Positions 40,028-47,654 of a stretch of DNA of 51,110 nt are shown one piece after another. The notes beneath the pieces were generated by a model. The model had not been told where the DNA came from. It was given only the letters and a program-made list of their open reading frames with translations, and did not search any database. This stretch comes from Christensenellaceae bacterium (GTDB taxonomy: Bacteria > Bacillota > Clostridia > Christensenellales > Borkfalkiaceae), in contig JAZUCI010000131.1 of NCBI GenBank assembly GCA_045639045.1, positions 1-51,110 on the forward strand, read 5' to 3'. How positions within the stretch are numbered: position 1 is the stretch's first letter; each line of letters begins with the position of its first letter. Both the position numbers and the translations under genes were made by a program.

Positions 40028-42712
40028 TTATTCCTTTTCCTTTACGATATAGCATTCGATGATATCGTCGTTTTTAATATCGTTGAAGTTTTCAATGGAG
40101 ATACCGCATTCGTAACCCGTTGCAACTTCCTTAACGTCGTCCTTAAAGCGTTTTAACTGACGAACGGCGCCTTCGCAAATCATTACGTCGTTACGGTAAA
40201 TACGAAGTTTCCCTTCGCGTACCATTTTCCCTTCGATAACGTAGCAACCAGCAACCGTACCAACGCCCGTAATACGGAAGGTATCGCGTACTTCCGCTTT
40301 CCCCGTAAGTACGTCCTCCATCTTGGGCGCAAGCATACCTTTAAGTGCTTTTTCTACGTCCTCGATCGCTTCGTAGATAACGCGGTACAGTTTTACGTCT
40401 ACACCGCTTCTTTCCGCCATAACCTTCGCCTTGCTATCCGGGCGCACGTTAAAGCCGATGATAACCGCTTTAGAAGATTGCGCAAGCATTACGTCCGATT
40501 CGGTGATTGCGCCTGCTGCGGCGTGGATTACCGAAATCTTCACTTCGTCGTTGCTCAATTTTACCAAGGATTGCTTAACCGCTTCTACCGAACCTTGAAC
40601 GTCCGCTTTTACGATTAAGTTCAAGCTCTTGATATCTTGCTTGAATACGTCTTCCAACGTTACCTTGGAAGCGTTGTGAATCATTGCTTCACGTTCCTTA
40701 TTACGGCGTTCTTCTGCAACTAACTTGGTCAGTTTTTCTTCTTCAACCGCAATTAAGCTATCCCCCGTATTGGGTACGTCTTCAAGCCCAAGAACGGATA
40801 CGGCTGCGGAAGGGCCTGCTTCCTTCACCGTTCTGCCCTTATCGTCAATCATCGCGCGAACGCGGCCAACCACGGTGCCCGCAACGATGTTATCCCCCGT
40901 GCGGAGGGTACCGTTTTGTACAAGTACGGTGGCAACGGGACCTTTACCCTTATCCAACTTTGCTTCGATGATAACACCGCGCGCTTTTCTATCGGGATTG
41001 CACTTTAATTCTTTTACTTCTGCAAGTAAAATCAAGTTTTCTAACAGAACGTCTACGTTTTCGCCCGTTTTCGCGGATACGGGAACCATCATTACGTCCC
41101 CACCCCATTCTTCAATTAAAATACCGTGTTCGGTAAGTTCTTGCTTCACGCGGTCGATATTCGCGGTGGGCTTATCAATTTTGTTGCAAGCGATTACGAT
41201 GGAAACGCCTGCCGCCTTTGCGTGGTTGATGGCTTCTACCGTTTGGGGCATGATGCCGTCGTCCGCTGCAATTACGATAACCGCGATATCCGTGGCTTGC
41301 GCACCGCGCATACGCATTGCGGTGAACGCTTCGTGCCCGGGGGTATCCAAGAAGGTTACGGTTTCACCCTTTACCGAAACGCTATACGCGCCGATGTGTT
41401 GGGTAATACCGCCCGCTTCCCCTTCGGTTACGTTGGTGTGGCGAATACGGTCAAGTAGCGAGGTTTTACCGTGGTCAACGTGCCCCATAACCGCAATAAC
41501 GGGGGGACGTTTTACCGCTGCAATTTCATCCGTTTCGGTATCGCGACTTGCTTCGTTTAAGATATCTTCGGCGGTTTTATCCAATTGCAATTCCAGTTCG
41601 ATACCCAAATCCGCCGCAATAAAGCCTGCGGTATCGTAATCTACGGTATCGTTAATGGTCTTCATGATGCCTTCCTTAAACAGGCGCTTGGTGATTTCCG
41701 CCGCCGTGATGCCAAGTTTTTCCGAAAGGACTTTAATTGCGATAATTTCGGTGTTGATAATCGCTTTTTCAATTTTGATTTGGGGCGTTTGCTGTTTAGT
41801 TTTCGCTTTCTTTACGCGAAGTTTTCTGTAACCGCTTTCCTTATCGTCAAAATCTTCAATTTTCAGTTCACGCGAAATTAAAGCGCGCTTGCTAACGGTT
41901 GCCTTTTTATCGTCGTAACTTTTGCCGTCCGCCTTCTTCTTTGCGGGGCCGAAAGATTTCGTTGCTTCCTTGGGGAAGGCGGGCATTTCCATTTTAGGTG
42001 CGCCACCCATGGGTCTGGGCATTCTGGGCGCACCCGTACCGCCTTGGGGTTTATCGCCAAAGGGACGGCGTTCGCCTTGGGGACGGTCGCCAAAGGGTTT
42101 TCTTTCCCCTTGGGGACGGTCACCGTAAGGACGGCGTTCGCCTTGGGGGCGATCACCAAAAGGTCTTCTTTCCCCTTGGGGACGGTCGCCGTAAGGACGG
42201 CGTTCGCCTTGACCGGGGGTAAACTCTCTACGGGGTTGACCTTGCGCGGGGCGGAATTCTTGGCGTTGCGCTGCGGCTGCTTGCGCCGCCTTTTTCGCTT
42301 CCATTTCCGCTTTCAAGCGTTCGCGTTCTTCCGCCCTTGCCTTGGCTTCGGCTTCTTCTTGCGCCTTAGCGCGGGCAATTTCTTCCGCTTTTGCGCGTTC
42401 TTCCGCTTCTTTTTTAGCGATTTCCGCTTGCTTTTTCGCATTTTCCGCAGCAATGCGTTCGGCTTCTAATCTTGCCGCTTCGTTTGCCTTGGCTTGTTCT
42501 TTTTCTTCGGCAAGGCGCTTTTCTTCCGCTTCTTCACGTTCCTTTTTCATGCGAAGGTAGTCCTTGCCCTTTTCGTCTAATCTTTTCAGTACGTCCCCAA
42601 TGTTACGCTTCAAATCCGAAAAGCCTTTCTTCAGACCTTCGATTTCGTTGGTCTTAAAGTCCTTGATTTTATCTAACGTTAGGGTTTCTTTTTGAATTTC
42701 TTTATCTGCCAT
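40028..42712 (-). CDS. infB: Translation initiation factor IF-2
   Basis: 894 aa. G domain GHVDHGKTSLLD, DTPGHEAF, NKID. The long charged N-terminal region contains tandem repeats. Confidence 0.97.
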   Translation of the reverse strand: MADKEIQKETLTLDKIKDFKTNEIEGLKKGFSDLKRNIGDVLKRLDEKGKDYLRMKKEREEAEEKRLAEEKEQAKANEAARLEAERIAAENAKKQAEIAKKEAEERAKAEEIARAKAQEEAEAKARAEERERLKAEMEAKKAAQAAAAQRQEFRPAQGQPRREFTPGQGERRPYGDRPQGERRPFGDRPQGERRPYGDRPQGERKPFGDRPQGERRPFGDKPQGGTGAPRMPRPMGGAPKMEMPAFPKEATKSFGPAKKKADGKSYDDKKATVSKRALISRELKIEDFDDKESGYRKLRVKKAKTKQQTPQIKIEKAIINTEIIAIKVLSEKLGITAAEITKRLFKEGIMKTINDTVDYDTAGFIAADLGIELELQLDKTAEDILNEASRDTETDEIAAVKRPPVIAVMGHVDHGKTSLLDRIRHTNVTEGEAGGITQHIGAYSVSVKGETVTFLDTPGHEAFTAMRMRGAQATDIAVIVIAADDGIMPQTVEAINHAKAAGVSIVIACNKIDKPTANIDRVKQELTEHGILIEEWGGDVMMVPVSAKTGENVDVLLENLILLAEVKELKCNPDRKARGVIIEAKLDKGKGPVATVLVQNGTLRTGDNIVAGTVVGRVRAMIDDKGRTVKEAGPSAAVSVLGLEDVPNTGDSLIAVEEEKLTKLVAEERRNKEREAMIHNASKVTLEDVFKQDIKSLNLIVKADVQGSVEAVKQSLVKLSNDEVKISVIHAAAGAITESDVMLAQSSKAVIIGFNVRPDSKAKVMAERSGVDVKLYRVIYEAIEDVEKALKGMLAPKMEDVLTGKAEVRDTFRITGVGTVAGCYVIEGKMVREGKLRIYRNDVMICEGAVRQLKRFKDDVKEVATGYECGISIENFNDIKNDDIIECYIVKEKE
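42036..42210 (-). repeat. In-frame 33-nt tandem repeat (~5.3 units; 66-nt higher-order periodicity) inside infB
   Basis: The units ggggacggtc(g/a)cc(a/g)(a/t)aagg...cctt encode (G)ERRP(Y/F)GDRPQ five times. Alternate units are more alike than adjacent ones. Confidence 0.85.
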
Positions 42713-44470: not shown

Positions 44471-44932
44471 TTAATCAAAGACGACGCCTTGATTGATTTT
44501 CGCTATTTTCGTTTTTTGTAAGCGGTAGGTTTTGCCGTTTTCTTCCACGGTAACCGTACCTTGATCGAAGGCGACCATAACGCCTTCAAAGTATTTCTTA
44601 CCCTGTTCGGGCGAATACAGTTTTACTTCAACCAACTTTCCCAAATTCCTTTCGTAGTCCCGTTCGGTTTTAAAGGGACGGTCTACCCCGGCGCTGGATA
44701 CGTTTAAGGTATAGGGCGCGCCGAAGGTGGGATCCAATTCGTCCAATGCGGGATCGACTGCGTTGTGGTACGCTTCGCAATCGTTTAAATCGATGCCCCC
44801 TTCCTTATCCAAAAAGATGGTTAAGGCGGGCTCCCTACCGTTTTTGAAAAGAACTTCCACCACTTCGAACCCAAAGGGTTCCGCAACGGTTTTTGCAAGC
44901 GTTTCTATTTCCGAAACGTCCTTCACTTTCAT
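44471..44932 (-). CDS. rimP: Ribosome maturation factor RimP
   Basis: 153 aa. ...YTLNVSSAGVDRPF... First gene of the nusA-infB operon. Confidence 0.9.
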   Translation of the reverse strand: MKVKDVSEIETLAKTVAEPFGFEVVEVLFKNGREPALTIFLDKEGGIDLNDCEAYHNAVDPALDELDPTFGAPYTLNVSSAGVDRPFKTERDYERNLGKLVEVKLYSPEQGKKYFEGVMVAFDQGTVTVEENGKTYRLQKTKIAKINQGVVFD

Positions 44933-44956
44933 ACATTTTCCCCCTTATAAAAGGAT

Positions 44957-44980
44957 TTGAGAGTGGCGAGCCACTCTCAA
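44957..44980 (-). promoter_or_regulatory. 10-bp leader hairpin upstream of rimP (possible attenuator / weak terminator)
   Basis: ttgagagtgg cgag ccactctcaa. On the minus strand it is followed by AUCCUUUUAUAA, a poor U-tract. Confidence 0.45.
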
Positions 44981-45009
44981 ATAAAAGTCAATCTTATTCA
45001 AGTATATTC

Positions 45010-45038
45010 ATTATACACTATTTTTTTTCGTTTGGCAA
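45010..45038 (-). promoter_or_regulatory. Sigma-A promoter for the rimP-nusA-infB operon (TTGCCA-17-TATAAT, TG-extended)
   Basis: Minus strand reads ttgcca aacgaaaaaaaatagtg tataat. The -35 lies in the last codons of the upstream gene. Confidence 0.55.
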
Positions 45039-46562
45039 GCGTTTTTGCAACTTTATTAGCTCCAAAAACATTTCTGCGGTGGCTAATGCGTCGTAACAGG
45101 CGCGGTGATGCTGAAATTCAATGCCAAAATGCGCGCAAACGGTGTTTAATTTATGATTGGCAAGGTGCGGGAGTACCTCACGCGAAAAATCCAGGGTATC
45201 CATTACCGCGTTATCAAACACGTATTCGCAGTTTCTGCCGTGGAAGCGCATAAAACTCATATCAAAGGGCGCGTTGTGCGCAACCATAATCGCCCCTTCC
45301 ACGTACTTGTAAAAATCCCCTACCACTTCGCTAAATTTGGGCGCATCCGCAACCATTTCGTCCGTAATGCCCGTAAGTTCCACGATTTTTGCGGGAATGG
45401 GGCGTTCGGGATTGACGAAGGTGGAAAATAGATCGGTAATTTTGCCGTTTACGATACGCACCGCGCCGATTTCGGTAATCATGTCCGCCGTGGGGGTGGT
45501 ACCCGTGGTTTCCAAGTCGAACACCACGAAGGTTTTACCCGTTAAGCACTCGGGCAGTTTTTCTTCCACGTCGAACAGCGCCTTTTGGCGGGTGGAATGA
45601 AAACCCGTGGGGCGCACCAAACGGTATTCGGGCGCAGGCTGACGTTTTTCCTTTGCCATGGGCTTAAAATCGGGCGGGAAGGTACAGCGGTTTAATTTTT
45701 GGATGGTATAGCGAAGGCCTCCGCCACCGTTTTCGTACTTGCCCGAAGTGATGATGGCGTCCCCTTCCTTAATTTGGCGCACCTTTTCCACCGTTCCTTT
45801 TTTAGAAAAATAGAACGCGCGTAAGGGTTTTGCCACCGTGCGATCGGTATATTCAAACACGAAATAGGGCTTACCGTTTTTGGTTTCCTTTTCGCTAACC
45901 GAAAGCACCACGCCCGCGTGGATTACACCCTCCATTTCCATGAGCGCGTCCTCCATATAAAGGGCGGTTTGCACCATATTTTTATCGTCCACGGGAAACA
46001 CTTCGTTTACGTAAAAGGAACGCACGCGTACGGGCGCAACGCGGAAGTTTACCGTGTTGTTTTCGGCCAAGGGAACGAAGTTTTCTTCGGGCTTTTCCGC
46101 AACCGCGCTACCTTGAAAGGTGCCGCAAAAGGTACGGTTTAACAGCGCGTCCGCATTGGCGATTGCGTTGCTTTTATCCAGCAGTTTTTTTGCCGAAGGG
46201 GAAACCGAAACCACGTAACGTTTTACGGGGGTGGAGGTATCCGCCGTGATATCCTGCTTGCCAAGTTCAAAAGATACCGCGTTTTGGGTGGTTTTTAGAT
46301 AGTTATATACGGTATGTACCACCAAATCGTTATCCGCAACCCGTTTTTCCACGCCTACGGTAACGCCCAAAAACCCGTCGGGCACTACTTCGTTTACCGT
46401 GTGAAGGATGCGCTCTTGCAAATCTTCGCTTACGGTTTTTTCACAGAGAAAGGAAAAATGGACGCTTCTGCGCCTTTGGTCTATCACTACGTCCGCAAGT
46501 TTTAGCGTTTCTAACGCTTCGTCGCTTGCGCGTAAGGATTCTATCATTTGTTTGATATCCAT
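45018..46562 (-). CDS. PolC-derived protein: PolC N-terminal domain + OB fold + DEDDh 3'-5' exonuclease, no PHP or polymerase domains
   Basis: 514 aa. The exonuclease module [10 protein letters not shown]...[10 protein letters not shown]...[12 protein letters not shown]...[28 protein letters not shown] is near-colinear with my recollection of the B. subtilis PolC exonuclease ([60 protein letters not shown]). An OB-like segment [26 protein letters not shown] precedes it. Sits between ispG and rimP. Confidence 0.8.
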   Translation of the reverse strand: [514 protein letters not shown]

Positions 46563-46598: not shown

Positions 46599-47654
46599 CT
46601 ATTTGCCTTGTTTTTCACGTAAAACTTGGGCTAAAATTTCCATAAATTCGCTTTCCGCGCGTTCTAAAGGAACAGTTTTTAACACCTTTCCTTTTTGGAA
46701 AATCGCCGCGCCGCCTTTCGCGCCCGCGATGCCCAAATCCGCATCCCGCGATTCCCCAATGCCGTTCACCACGCAACCCATTACCGCAATTTTTACGGGA
46801 ACGGTGATATCTTGCGTAAGTTTTTCCACCTTTTCGGCTACCTCTACGGCGTTCCATAAACATCTACCGCAAGTGGGGCAAGCGATAACTTCCGCCATAT
46901 TGGGGTATAAACCTGCGGCGTTCAAAATCTTTTTCGCCGCGTACACTTCCCTAACGGGGTCTGCCGCAAGCGAAACGCGGATGGTATCCCCAATACCGCT
47001 TAATAACAGCGCGCCAATCCCCATACTGCTTTTTACCATACCCGTATCGTAGGTACCTGCTTCGGTTACACCCACGTGTAAGGGGTAGGAGGTGCGCTCC
47101 GCAACGTAGCGGTACGCTTGCACGGTTAAGGGAACGCTGGAAGCCTTTACCGAAATTACGATATTTTCCACCCCGTGTTTTTCAAGGAGAGAAACTTGCG
47201 CCAAAGCGCTTTCCCCCAAAGCTTTGGCGGTAGCGCCGTATTTTTCAAAATATTCCTTTTGAATACTGCCAAGGTTACTGCCCACGCGTACGGGGATTTG
47301 CCGTTCTTTCAGTAAGGCGGCCACTTCGCGAAGATTGCCTTCCCCACCGATATTGCCGGGGTTTAGGCGCACCTTATCAATGCCGTTTTCAATGGAAAGA
47401 AGGGCAAGTTTATGGTCGAACTGAATATCCGCAACCAAAGCGGCGTTCGTTTGCTTTTTGATTTCGGGAATAGCGAAAGCATCCGCTTCATCCGAAACGG
47501 CAAAGCGCGCGATAGTAGCGCCCGCGCGTTCCATAGCGCGGATTTGGTTTACCGTGGCGGTAACGTTTTCCGCTTTTACGCTGGTCATGGACTGAATCGC
47601 GATAGGCTCCCCCCCACCAATGGCAATCTTGCCGATTCGTACGCGTTTTTGCAT
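46599..47654 (-). CDS. ispG: 4-hydroxy-3-methylbut-2-en-1-yl diphosphate synthase
   Basis: 351 aa. ...VRLNPGNIG..., ACPTCGRC and VMGCVVNGIGE. Confidence 0.95.
   Translation of the reverse strand: MQKRVRIGKIAIGGGEPIAIQSMTSVKAENVTATVNQIRAMERAGATIARFAVSDEADAFAIPEIKKQTNAALVADIQFDHKLALLSIENGIDKVRLNPGNIGGEGNLREVAALLKERQIPVRVGSNLGSIQKEYFEKYGATAKALGESALAQVSLLEKHGVENIVISVKASSVPLTVQAYRYVAERTSYPLHVGVTEAGTYDTGMVKSSMGIGALLLSGIGDTIRVSLAADPVREVYAAKKILNAAGLYPNMAEVIACPTCGRCLWNAVEVAEKVEKLTQDITVPVKIAVMGCVVNGIGESRDADLGIAGAKGGAAIFQKGKVLKTVPLERAESEFMEILAQVLREKQGK

Follow-up and report, generated by a model that had tools for sequence, protein, structure and literature searches.

PolC is treated as the essential, defining replicase of the Firmicutes. 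Here we describe a protein of 514 amino acids (aa) that descends from PolC and lacks its polymerase. The gene was found in a 51,110-nucleotide stretch of DNA from a Christensenellaceae bacterium (GenBank assembly GCA_045639045.1, contig JAZUCI010000131.1, positions 1 to 51,110), and this whole stretch is referred to as the window. The open reading frame runs from ATG to TAG at 45018..46562 on the reverse strand, in the slot that polC occupies in related genomes. A first-pass annotation, made from the letters of the window alone, had described a stand-alone protein with a PolC-like N-terminus, an OB-like segment and an exonuclease, and had offered three explanations for it: a PolC split in two, with its polymerase module at another place in the genome, a remnant from the relocation or duplication of polC, or a dedicated proofreading or clamp-associated exonuclease that acts in trans.

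The closest described system is PolC itself. The two proteins share the slot (ispG-[gene]-rimP-nusA) and a colinear N-terminal domain, OB fold and DEDDh exonuclease, and the exonuclease of the 514-aa protein nests among those of PolCs. Unlike PolC, which has ~1430 aa, the 514-aa protein is without the PHP domain that PolC's exonuclease interrupts and has a new 48-residue linker in place of the N-terminal PHP half. It is also without the palm, thumb, fingers, HhH and C-terminal clamp motif, and does not polymerise DNA.

The second comparison is with epsilon (DnaQ) of E. coli. Both are free-standing DEDDh exonucleases in a cell where DnaE1 is the sole replicase, and both have a peptide beside the exonuclease that is, in the 514-aa protein, similar to a clamp-binding motif. 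Unlike epsilon, the 514-aa protein has its origin in PolC and no orthology to the dnaQ of proteobacteria, carries ~340 extra N-terminal residues, and has no C-terminal alpha-binding segment. Its candidate clamp motif stands before the exonuclease, whereas the clamp motif of E. coli epsilon lies just after the exonuclease domain.

At the level of the genome, the arrangement is that of the DnaE1-only system (Timinskas et al. 2013): there is one C-family polymerase, of the DnaE1 type, which here has an internal QMSFF motif and a C-terminal domain. Proofreading and polymerase modules of C-family replicases have been separated or rejoined elsewhere: PolC variants without the exonuclease insertion have been reported from Clostridia and Negativicutes that have PolC and DnaE1 (PMC3919608), and DnaE1 with an N-terminally fused exonuclease is known (Timinskas et al. 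2013, PMC3919608). Those proteins are polymerases, whereas the 514-aa family consists of accessory modules without one. In the 2013 survey PolC was always paired with DnaE, and an intact polymerase active site was required for inclusion (PMC3919608), so that survey could not have found the 514-aa family. A 2026 survey of complete genomes (PMC12926913) makes no mention of the 514-aa architecture or of the name Christensenell-, and full-text literature searches returned no description of the architecture or of PolC-less Christensenellales-like Clostridia.

A polymerase-less PolC descendant in the polC slot

The gene order nrdR-ispG-X-rimP-nusA-infB, where X is a gene of the 514-aa type, was kept at at least 26 loci of relatives, whose assemblies come from a range of studies and hosts. 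Genomes of the order that do have PolC read ispG-polC-rimP-nusA at this place, which bears out the synteny argument of the first-pass annotation. By position as well as by sequence, the 514-aa gene is a descendant of polC. We agree with the earlier view that the missing domains cannot be hidden by a frameshift at this locus, and all four of the motif strings quoted in that annotation are present in the translation.

Relative to PolC, both PHP halves and the entire polymerase core have been lost, while the N-terminal domain, the OB fold and the DEDDh exonuclease have been kept. Pfam searches of the 514-aa protein gave no PHP match and no DNA_pol3_alpha (PF07733) match, and the protein stops 8 residues past the exonuclease domain (507-514 only). 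Together with the hhalign comparisons below, these searches confirm the stand-alone architecture that had been proposed. The two PolC family models gave 194 bits against a cut-off of 873 (NF001688, nearly all of it from the exonuclease block) and 171 bits against a cut-off of 1043 (TIGR01405). The protein fails PolC membership, yet it is a PolC descendant.

In the exonuclease block, the Pfam RNase_T model matched residues 346-499 (E 3e-41), and the best sequence matches in the PDB were the Thermotoga PolC exonuclease (2p1j, E 6e-32) and full-length PolC (9qpc). Its nearest sequence relatives were the exonucleases of clostridial PolCs, at 48-55% identity. TIGR00573, a model of the dnaq subfamily-domain type, was passed with 147.6 bits (cut-off 71.5), and there were weak matches to RNase T and to Rv2179c-like exoribonucleases. 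The five catalytic positions (D349, E351, D434, H486 and D491) did not vary in 44 members, some of them only 36% identical to the window protein. Relative to that protein, identity averaged 55% in the exonuclease, 41% in the OB fold, 39% in the linker and 25-32% in the N-terminal subdomains.

The PolC-like N-terminus was not detected by Pfam or phmmer with single sequences. Since these methods are blind to the N-terminal domain, homology had to come from hhalign, with which 75 family N-termini were compared to 38 PolC N-termini translated from fetched loci. Residues 1-342 matched the PolC N-termini with a probability of 99.2% (E 9e-20) over 284 colinear columns (6-294 against PolC 7-320). The N-terminal domain alone (1-158) matched with 95.1% (E 3.4e-8; positions 7-157 against PolC 7-160), and the OB fold alone with 98.5% (E 2.2e-15). 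These values establish the PolC-like N-terminus that the first-pass annotation had proposed, and the colinear match rules out an ordinary DnaQ that sits in the slot with some 330 N-terminal residues unrelated to PolC.

Other searches of the N-terminal part gave weaker or broader matches. Of the Pfam models for the PolC N-terminus, PF14480 matched 3 of 44 members at no better than E 0.12, and PF11490 matched nothing. The Pfam OB model (PF01336) matched residues 216-288 weakly in the window protein and was significant in 43 of 44 family members (best E 2.6e-12). A sequence profile search of the PDB returned a weak, colinear match to the PolC OB fold (5 bits) and no match for the N-terminal domain. 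A profile of the N-terminal 340 residues, run on a class-wide sample of 349 genomes, had matches (E 1e-9 to 1e-16) in over 100 of those that lie outside the order, and these matches fell in the N-terminal part of frames mostly ~1270-1610 aa long, which is PolC size.

The AlphaFold2 model of the 514-aa protein had a mean predicted local distance difference test score (pLDDT) of 89, and residues 1-160 modelled alone reached 93. Its N-terminal part forms a pair of small alpha/beta subdomains; a disordered spacer leads from these to an OB barrel, which an extended linker connects with the exonuclease. Foldseek ranked PolC 9qpc first for the whole model, with 394 aligned columns. For the isolated N-terminal domain its hits were tandem alpha/beta modules of a generic kind (BON domains, the repeats of SAM synthetase and the KH pair of archaeal NusA, 2cxc), and no PolC N-terminal domain was among the PDB hits of that run. 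In the secondary structure of the model, the order of elements in subdomain II is the topology of a type II KH domain, and the Foldseek outcome is compatible with a KH-like fold without being decisive.

The OB fold and the exonuclease are joined by a new conserved linker of 48 residues (295-342). By hhalign it has no similarity to the PolC N-terminus or to full-length PolC (probability 0.1-0.2%), and, since it has no PolC counterpart, a reading of it as a PHP remnant is not supportable. Three motifs stand out in the columns of 75 sequences. The first is [FP]Px[DN]F at 295-299 (P296 in 67 sequences, F299 in 65), and the second is PxxYxx[VI]xP at 310-318 (Y313 in 73, P318 in 74). The third, at 326-330, has F330 in 74 sequences, Q in 36 and V in 25 at position 326, and V or L in 63 at position 329. 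Where the window protein has QKALF, other members read QTDMF, QMDLF, QSDLF or QADLF. The peptide lies in an extended, exposed stretch without secondary structure just ahead of the exonuclease, in a block with pLDDT ~71. The clamp-binding pentapeptide is QL[SD]LF, and by likeness to it and to the internal GQMSLF or QMSFF of DnaEs, residues 326-330 are inferred to be a putative clamp-binding site.

A remnant of PolC might also have been recruited as a nuclease outside replication, for DNA repair or RNA 3'-end processing. NCBI calls some members '3'-5' exoribonuclease', DEDDh enzymes act on both DNA and RNA, the weak matches to RNase T and Rv2179c-like enzymes point the same way, and the gene adjoins the RNA and ribosome genes rimP-nusA-infB. 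The database names are automatic, however, and the neighbourhood is uninformative because it was inherited from polC. The exonuclease is closest to PolC proofreading domains, and the presence of the replisome-specific N-terminal domain of PolC, of the OB fold and of a peptide similar to a clamp motif agrees with work at the fork. We consider recruitment away from replication to be very unlikely.

PolC absence and a single DnaE1 across the clade

More than 1900 significant relatives were found among the candidates scored. The top 120 were all 504-529 aa long, with 97-100% query coverage and 36-95% identity, and most of the best 150 representatives at 50% clustering had ~500-540 aa. Identity among family members over the full length was 27-95%. 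Named sources were Christensenellaceae MAGs (metagenome-assembled genomes), 'uncultured Christensenella', Candidatus Coproplasma, Scatosoma and Onthoplasma, and the names currently given to members are 'hypothetical protein' or the exoribonuclease label mentioned above. The family is confined to one clade of small-genome, mostly gut-derived Clostridia. The survey of relatives that the first-pass annotation had proposed, for a gene of about 500 aa between ispG and rimP, turned up dozens of genomes that carry one.

These relatives also bear on the integrity of the locus. The source assembly is a fragmented MAG, in which ~2.8 kb could have been collapsed or deleted, or the gene could be a decaying pseudogene. 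The same architecture, length and slot recurred in dozens of independent assemblies, on contigs of up to 600 kb, which makes a local collapse untenable, and the family is mutually exclusive with PolC. Decay is contradicted by an unbroken frame, by catalytic residues that do not vary and by a confident model. Misassembly and pseudogene were rejected on the recurrence in independent assemblies and the intact frame, and we give either almost no probability.

No PolC was found in the window's genome, a MAG of 1.51 Mb in 187 contigs that is 92.7% complete. The wider distribution was obtained from an evenly sampled set of 151 genomes of the order, with the cut-off of the curated model applied for PolC. 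PolC was present in 75 of the 151 genomes (73 over the cut-off and 2 fragmented) and was found in none of the other 76, many of which are 97-100% complete. Presence and absence followed GTDB families exactly, with 18 families without PolC and 23 with it. Exactly one PF07733 match was obtained in 72 of the 76 PolC-less genomes, two in G080, G129 and G130, and none in G057, while PolC-bearing genomes had matches to both DnaE and PolC.

The 514-aa family showed the opposite distribution to PolC. In the order sample, full-length family matches occurred in PolC-less genomes only, and in PolC-bearing genomes the family profile matched only the exonuclease block inside the PolC frame. A homologue was detectable in 75 of the 76 PolC-less genomes when divergent cases were included, and all of the divergent homologues that were checked for neighbours lay between ispG and rimP. 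In the class-wide sample the full N-terminal architecture was seen in this order only.

The single Pol III alpha core (PF07733) of the window's genome is a protein of 1189 aa (G000:C86:7339-10929). It passes the equivalog model NF005298 with 1413 bits (cut-off 1260) over residues 2-1184. A PHP domain at its N-terminus, the clamp motif QMSFF in its interior, an OB fold and a C-terminal domain identify it as DnaE1. In the alignment and the tree it is orthologous to the DnaE1 of PolC-bearing relatives. PolC is absent in the clade, and a DnaE1-type enzyme is its only C-family polymerase.

The search of the genome for polC, dnaE and an orphan PHP-polymerase frame that had been proposed earlier returned this one protein, and two of the three earlier explanations are excluded. 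A split PolC, with the PHP and polymerase module encoded elsewhere, would draw on the incompleteness of the MAG and otherwise on the architecture alone. The sole PF07733 match is a DnaE1 that is complete in itself, PHP domain, OB fold and C-terminal domain included, and that groups with the DnaE1 of PolC-bearing relatives, and the count of one such match per genome held in nearly all of the PolC-less set. The split is in effect refuted by the single complete DnaE1, and we hold it to be extremely improbable. The relic left by relocation or duplication of polC was likewise contradicted, as no PolC was found in the window's genome or in 75 related genomes.

Differences between the DnaEs of the two groups of genomes were small. 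Only 4 columns discriminate the PolC-minus from the PolC-plus set. An insertion that varies between 8 and 45 residues and is rich in K, E and D is present in the PolC-minus DnaEs (L095-L109; ~461-500 in the DnaE of the window's genome) and absent from the PolC-plus DnaEs (L110-L123). This region aligns to residues 529-545 of Taq alpha, just past residue 465 of E. coli alpha, which we assign to the thumb. In the E. coli complex (5FKV) the thumb region is in contact with epsilon, which serves as a lead only, and the insertion may be a co-adapted surface. The 4 columns and the insertion are suggestive and do not amount to evidence of co-adaptation.

In two PolC-bearing families, f20 (G020, G111, G132) and f4 (G003, G043, G074, G101, G125, G145), the PolC frames were of normal length. 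Matches of their exonuclease blocks to the family profile were either poor (E 1e-23 to 1e-29) or absent at a threshold of E 1e-20, and both families may have a degenerate PolC exonuclease.

Origin and proposed role of the family

An exonuclease tree was built from 34 family members, 47 PolCs and an outgroup. The family formed a single clade (SH-aLRT 97) among clostridial PolC exonucleases, and its nearest neighbours, with weak support, were a Christensenella PolC and a small clostridial PolC group that includes Ructibacterium. In a DnaE tree of 16 PolC-minus and 14 PolC-plus sequences the two sets were parted by one branch with a support of 100. Each of the trees fits a single origin. PolC is ancestral to the Firmicutes (PMC3919608, PMC11040001), and the parsimonious account is therefore that polC was reduced in situ, once only, and passed on by vertical descent; the 514-aa protein as a precursor of PolC is less parsimonious. 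On balance, we lean slightly towards a history in which one ancestor of about half of the sampled order (18 GTDB families) dropped the pairing of PolC with DnaE1 and reverted to DnaE1 alone, polC became an epsilon-like, clamp-tethered subunit, and some branches later turned it into a pure scaffold.

The identity and evolutionary reading (a PolC relic, clade-wide PolC loss and a DnaE1-only replisome) is well supported. As to function, we think it likely that the 514-aa protein is a free-standing accessory subunit of this replisome, descended from polC, which would proofread in trans. It would join the DnaE1 replisome and, like epsilon beside E. coli alpha, use its DEDDh exonuclease in trans to clear away misincorporated 3' ends. 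Three contacts could hold it at the fork. The clamp-binding-like motif that precedes the exonuclease would bind the clamp, the N-terminal domain would sit on the clamp loader, and the single-stranded template would be bound by the OB fold. Docking on the clamp loader is a proposal made for the N-terminal domain of PolC (PMC3919608). Proofreading in trans with these tethers is the mechanism that we infer with the best support, from features of the sequence. It corresponds to the third of the earlier explanations, the dedicated trans-acting exonuclease, which is, as the likely reading, consistent with all of the findings. The clade-wide loss of PolC and the sister lineages with a dead exonuclease described below had not been foreseen by the first-pass annotation.

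Five points weigh against this interpretation. First, in the slot orthologues of families f41 (L126-L129) and f24 (L131, L132) every DEDDh residue is replaced, so that catalysis is dispensable in at least some lineages. Second, the PHP signature HHDHEHCDH is complete in 30 of 30 DnaEs from both sets (L095-L123 and G000:C86). This signature is the criterion for an 'active' PHP proofreader in the 2026 survey (PMC12926913), and its retention means that DnaE1 may do its own proofreading, which would make the DEDDh activity redundant. Third, the 514-aa protein has no C-terminal tail able to bind PHP, unlike E. coli epsilon. Fourth, the clamp motif is read by resemblance, and Q stands at its first position in about half of the members. 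Fifth, the absence of polC from one MAG as incomplete and fragmented as the window's (92.7%, 187 contigs) is no proof alone, and the claim of PolC loss is for that reason carried by the clade-wide pattern.

The first two of these points would suit a protein that is mainly a non-catalytic replisome scaffold, whose N-terminal domain, OB fold and linker bind the clamp loader, the clamp, single-stranded DNA and DnaE1 while the PHP domain of DnaE1 proofreads and the DEDDh exonuclease is a dispensable addition. The slot genes of f41 (546-552 aa, in four genomes) and f24 (505-515 aa) have lost the DEDDh residues, which L130 (family f37, 466 aa) keeps, and yet retain everything else: N-terminal domain, OB fold, linker motifs and a fold like that of the exonuclease; the full PHP signature is present in every DnaE sampled; and the linker motifs are conserved as well as the OB fold is. 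The five catalytic residues are nevertheless invariant in the window's lineage and in most of the family, down to 36% identity, and such invariance across divergent members argues for selection on catalysis. The exonuclease is also the most conserved domain, at 55% mean identity to the window protein. A scaffold without catalysis as the main role is a minority reading that we regard as unlikely, though less so than recruitment outside replication. For the trans-acting proofreader that we prefer, the intact PHP signature of DnaE1 and the keeping of dead-exonuclease members indicate that part of its value is probably structural, in tethering or organising the replisome, and a structural role probably exists beside the catalytic one.

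Separate short PolC-like DEDDh proteins, with frames of ~190-260 aa, were present in several PolC-less genomes. They were seen at L125, L133, L134 and L135 (G134, G024, G073, G144) and also in G071, G095, G129 and G080. Some of these genomes have a slot protein with a dead exonuclease, and the short proteins may be substitute proofreaders. In the window's genome the sole other exonuclease of the RNase_T type (G000:C166:5384-6352) has a diverged DEDDh domain and a tail rich in K, R and A, and its frame reaches the end of the contig.

A common gut clade that keeps the accessory modules without the polymerase shows which parts of PolC function apart from polymerisation, and makes it possible to test directly what the N-terminal domain and OB fold of PolC do, which has long been unclear. 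With this family, a stand-alone proofreading subunit for a DnaE1 replicase would have arisen a second time and by an independent path. The order, with its PolC-plus and PolC-minus families, provides a matched test of the proposed link between PolC and gene-strand bias or purine asymmetry. If a single ancestor did revert its replisome, the clade is a natural experiment in how replicase subunits are made, and it defines a group of Firmicutes without the target of PolC-directed antibiotics, some branches of which have lost catalysis and keep a pure scaffold. The commensals of the clade are predicted to be without the target of drugs such as ibezapolstat, which bears on which gut Firmicutes are spared.

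Feature coordinates and neighbouring genes

Positions of the features of the 514-aa gene and its neighbours in the window, with the basis for each assignment
Feature	Residues	Position	Strand	Basis
Whole gene, polymerase-less PolC descendant (N-terminal domain, OB fold, linker, DEDDh exonuclease)	1-514	45018..46562	-	ORF list, full-length homologues, AlphaFold2 model
N-terminal subdomain I (helix-strand-strand-helix-strand)	1-75	46338..46562	-	hhalign, model
N-terminal subdomain II (helix-strand-strand-helix-helix-strand)	76-157	46092..46337	-	hhalign, model secondary structure
Low-confidence, poorly conserved spacer	158-180	46023..46091	-	pLDDT < 50 at 163-173; mean identity to window protein 16%
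OB fold, homologous to PolC N-terminal OB	181-294	45681..46022	-	hhalign, PF01336
Conserved OB-to-exonuclease linker, in place of N-terminal PHP half	295-342	45537..45680	-	column statistics
Clamp-binding-like QKALF, family pattern [QV]xx[VL]F	326-330	45573..45587	-	column statistics
PolC-type DEDDh 3'-5' exonuclease	343-506	45045..45536	-	RNase_T, PDB matches, tree
ispG, upstream neighbour defining the polC slot		46599..47654	-	ends 36 bp before gene
rimP, downstream neighbour		44471..44932	-	starts 85 bp past gene
Promoter-like site and hairpin ahead of rimP		44955..45038	-	consensus scan, matches to consensus only

The gene rimP is followed by nusA, ylxR, an L7Ae-like gene, infB and rbfA. 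The first-pass annotation had placed a promoter and a hairpin in the 85-bp stretch before rimP, and both were recovered by the consensus scan. The promoter-like site, TTGCCA-17-TATAAT (45038-45010), has 11 of 12 consensus matches and overlaps the last codons at the 3' end of the 514-aa gene. Between it and rimP lies a 12-bp hairpin with a poor U tract (44982-44955). The putative promoter and hairpin may form a leader or attenuator of the rimP-nusA operon.

Farther along the same strand, within infB, the region that encodes the N-terminal part of IF-2 (41900-42250 of the window, reverse strand) contains tandem repeats of the GERRP(Y/F)GDRPQ type, which come after a long stretch rich in E, K and A.

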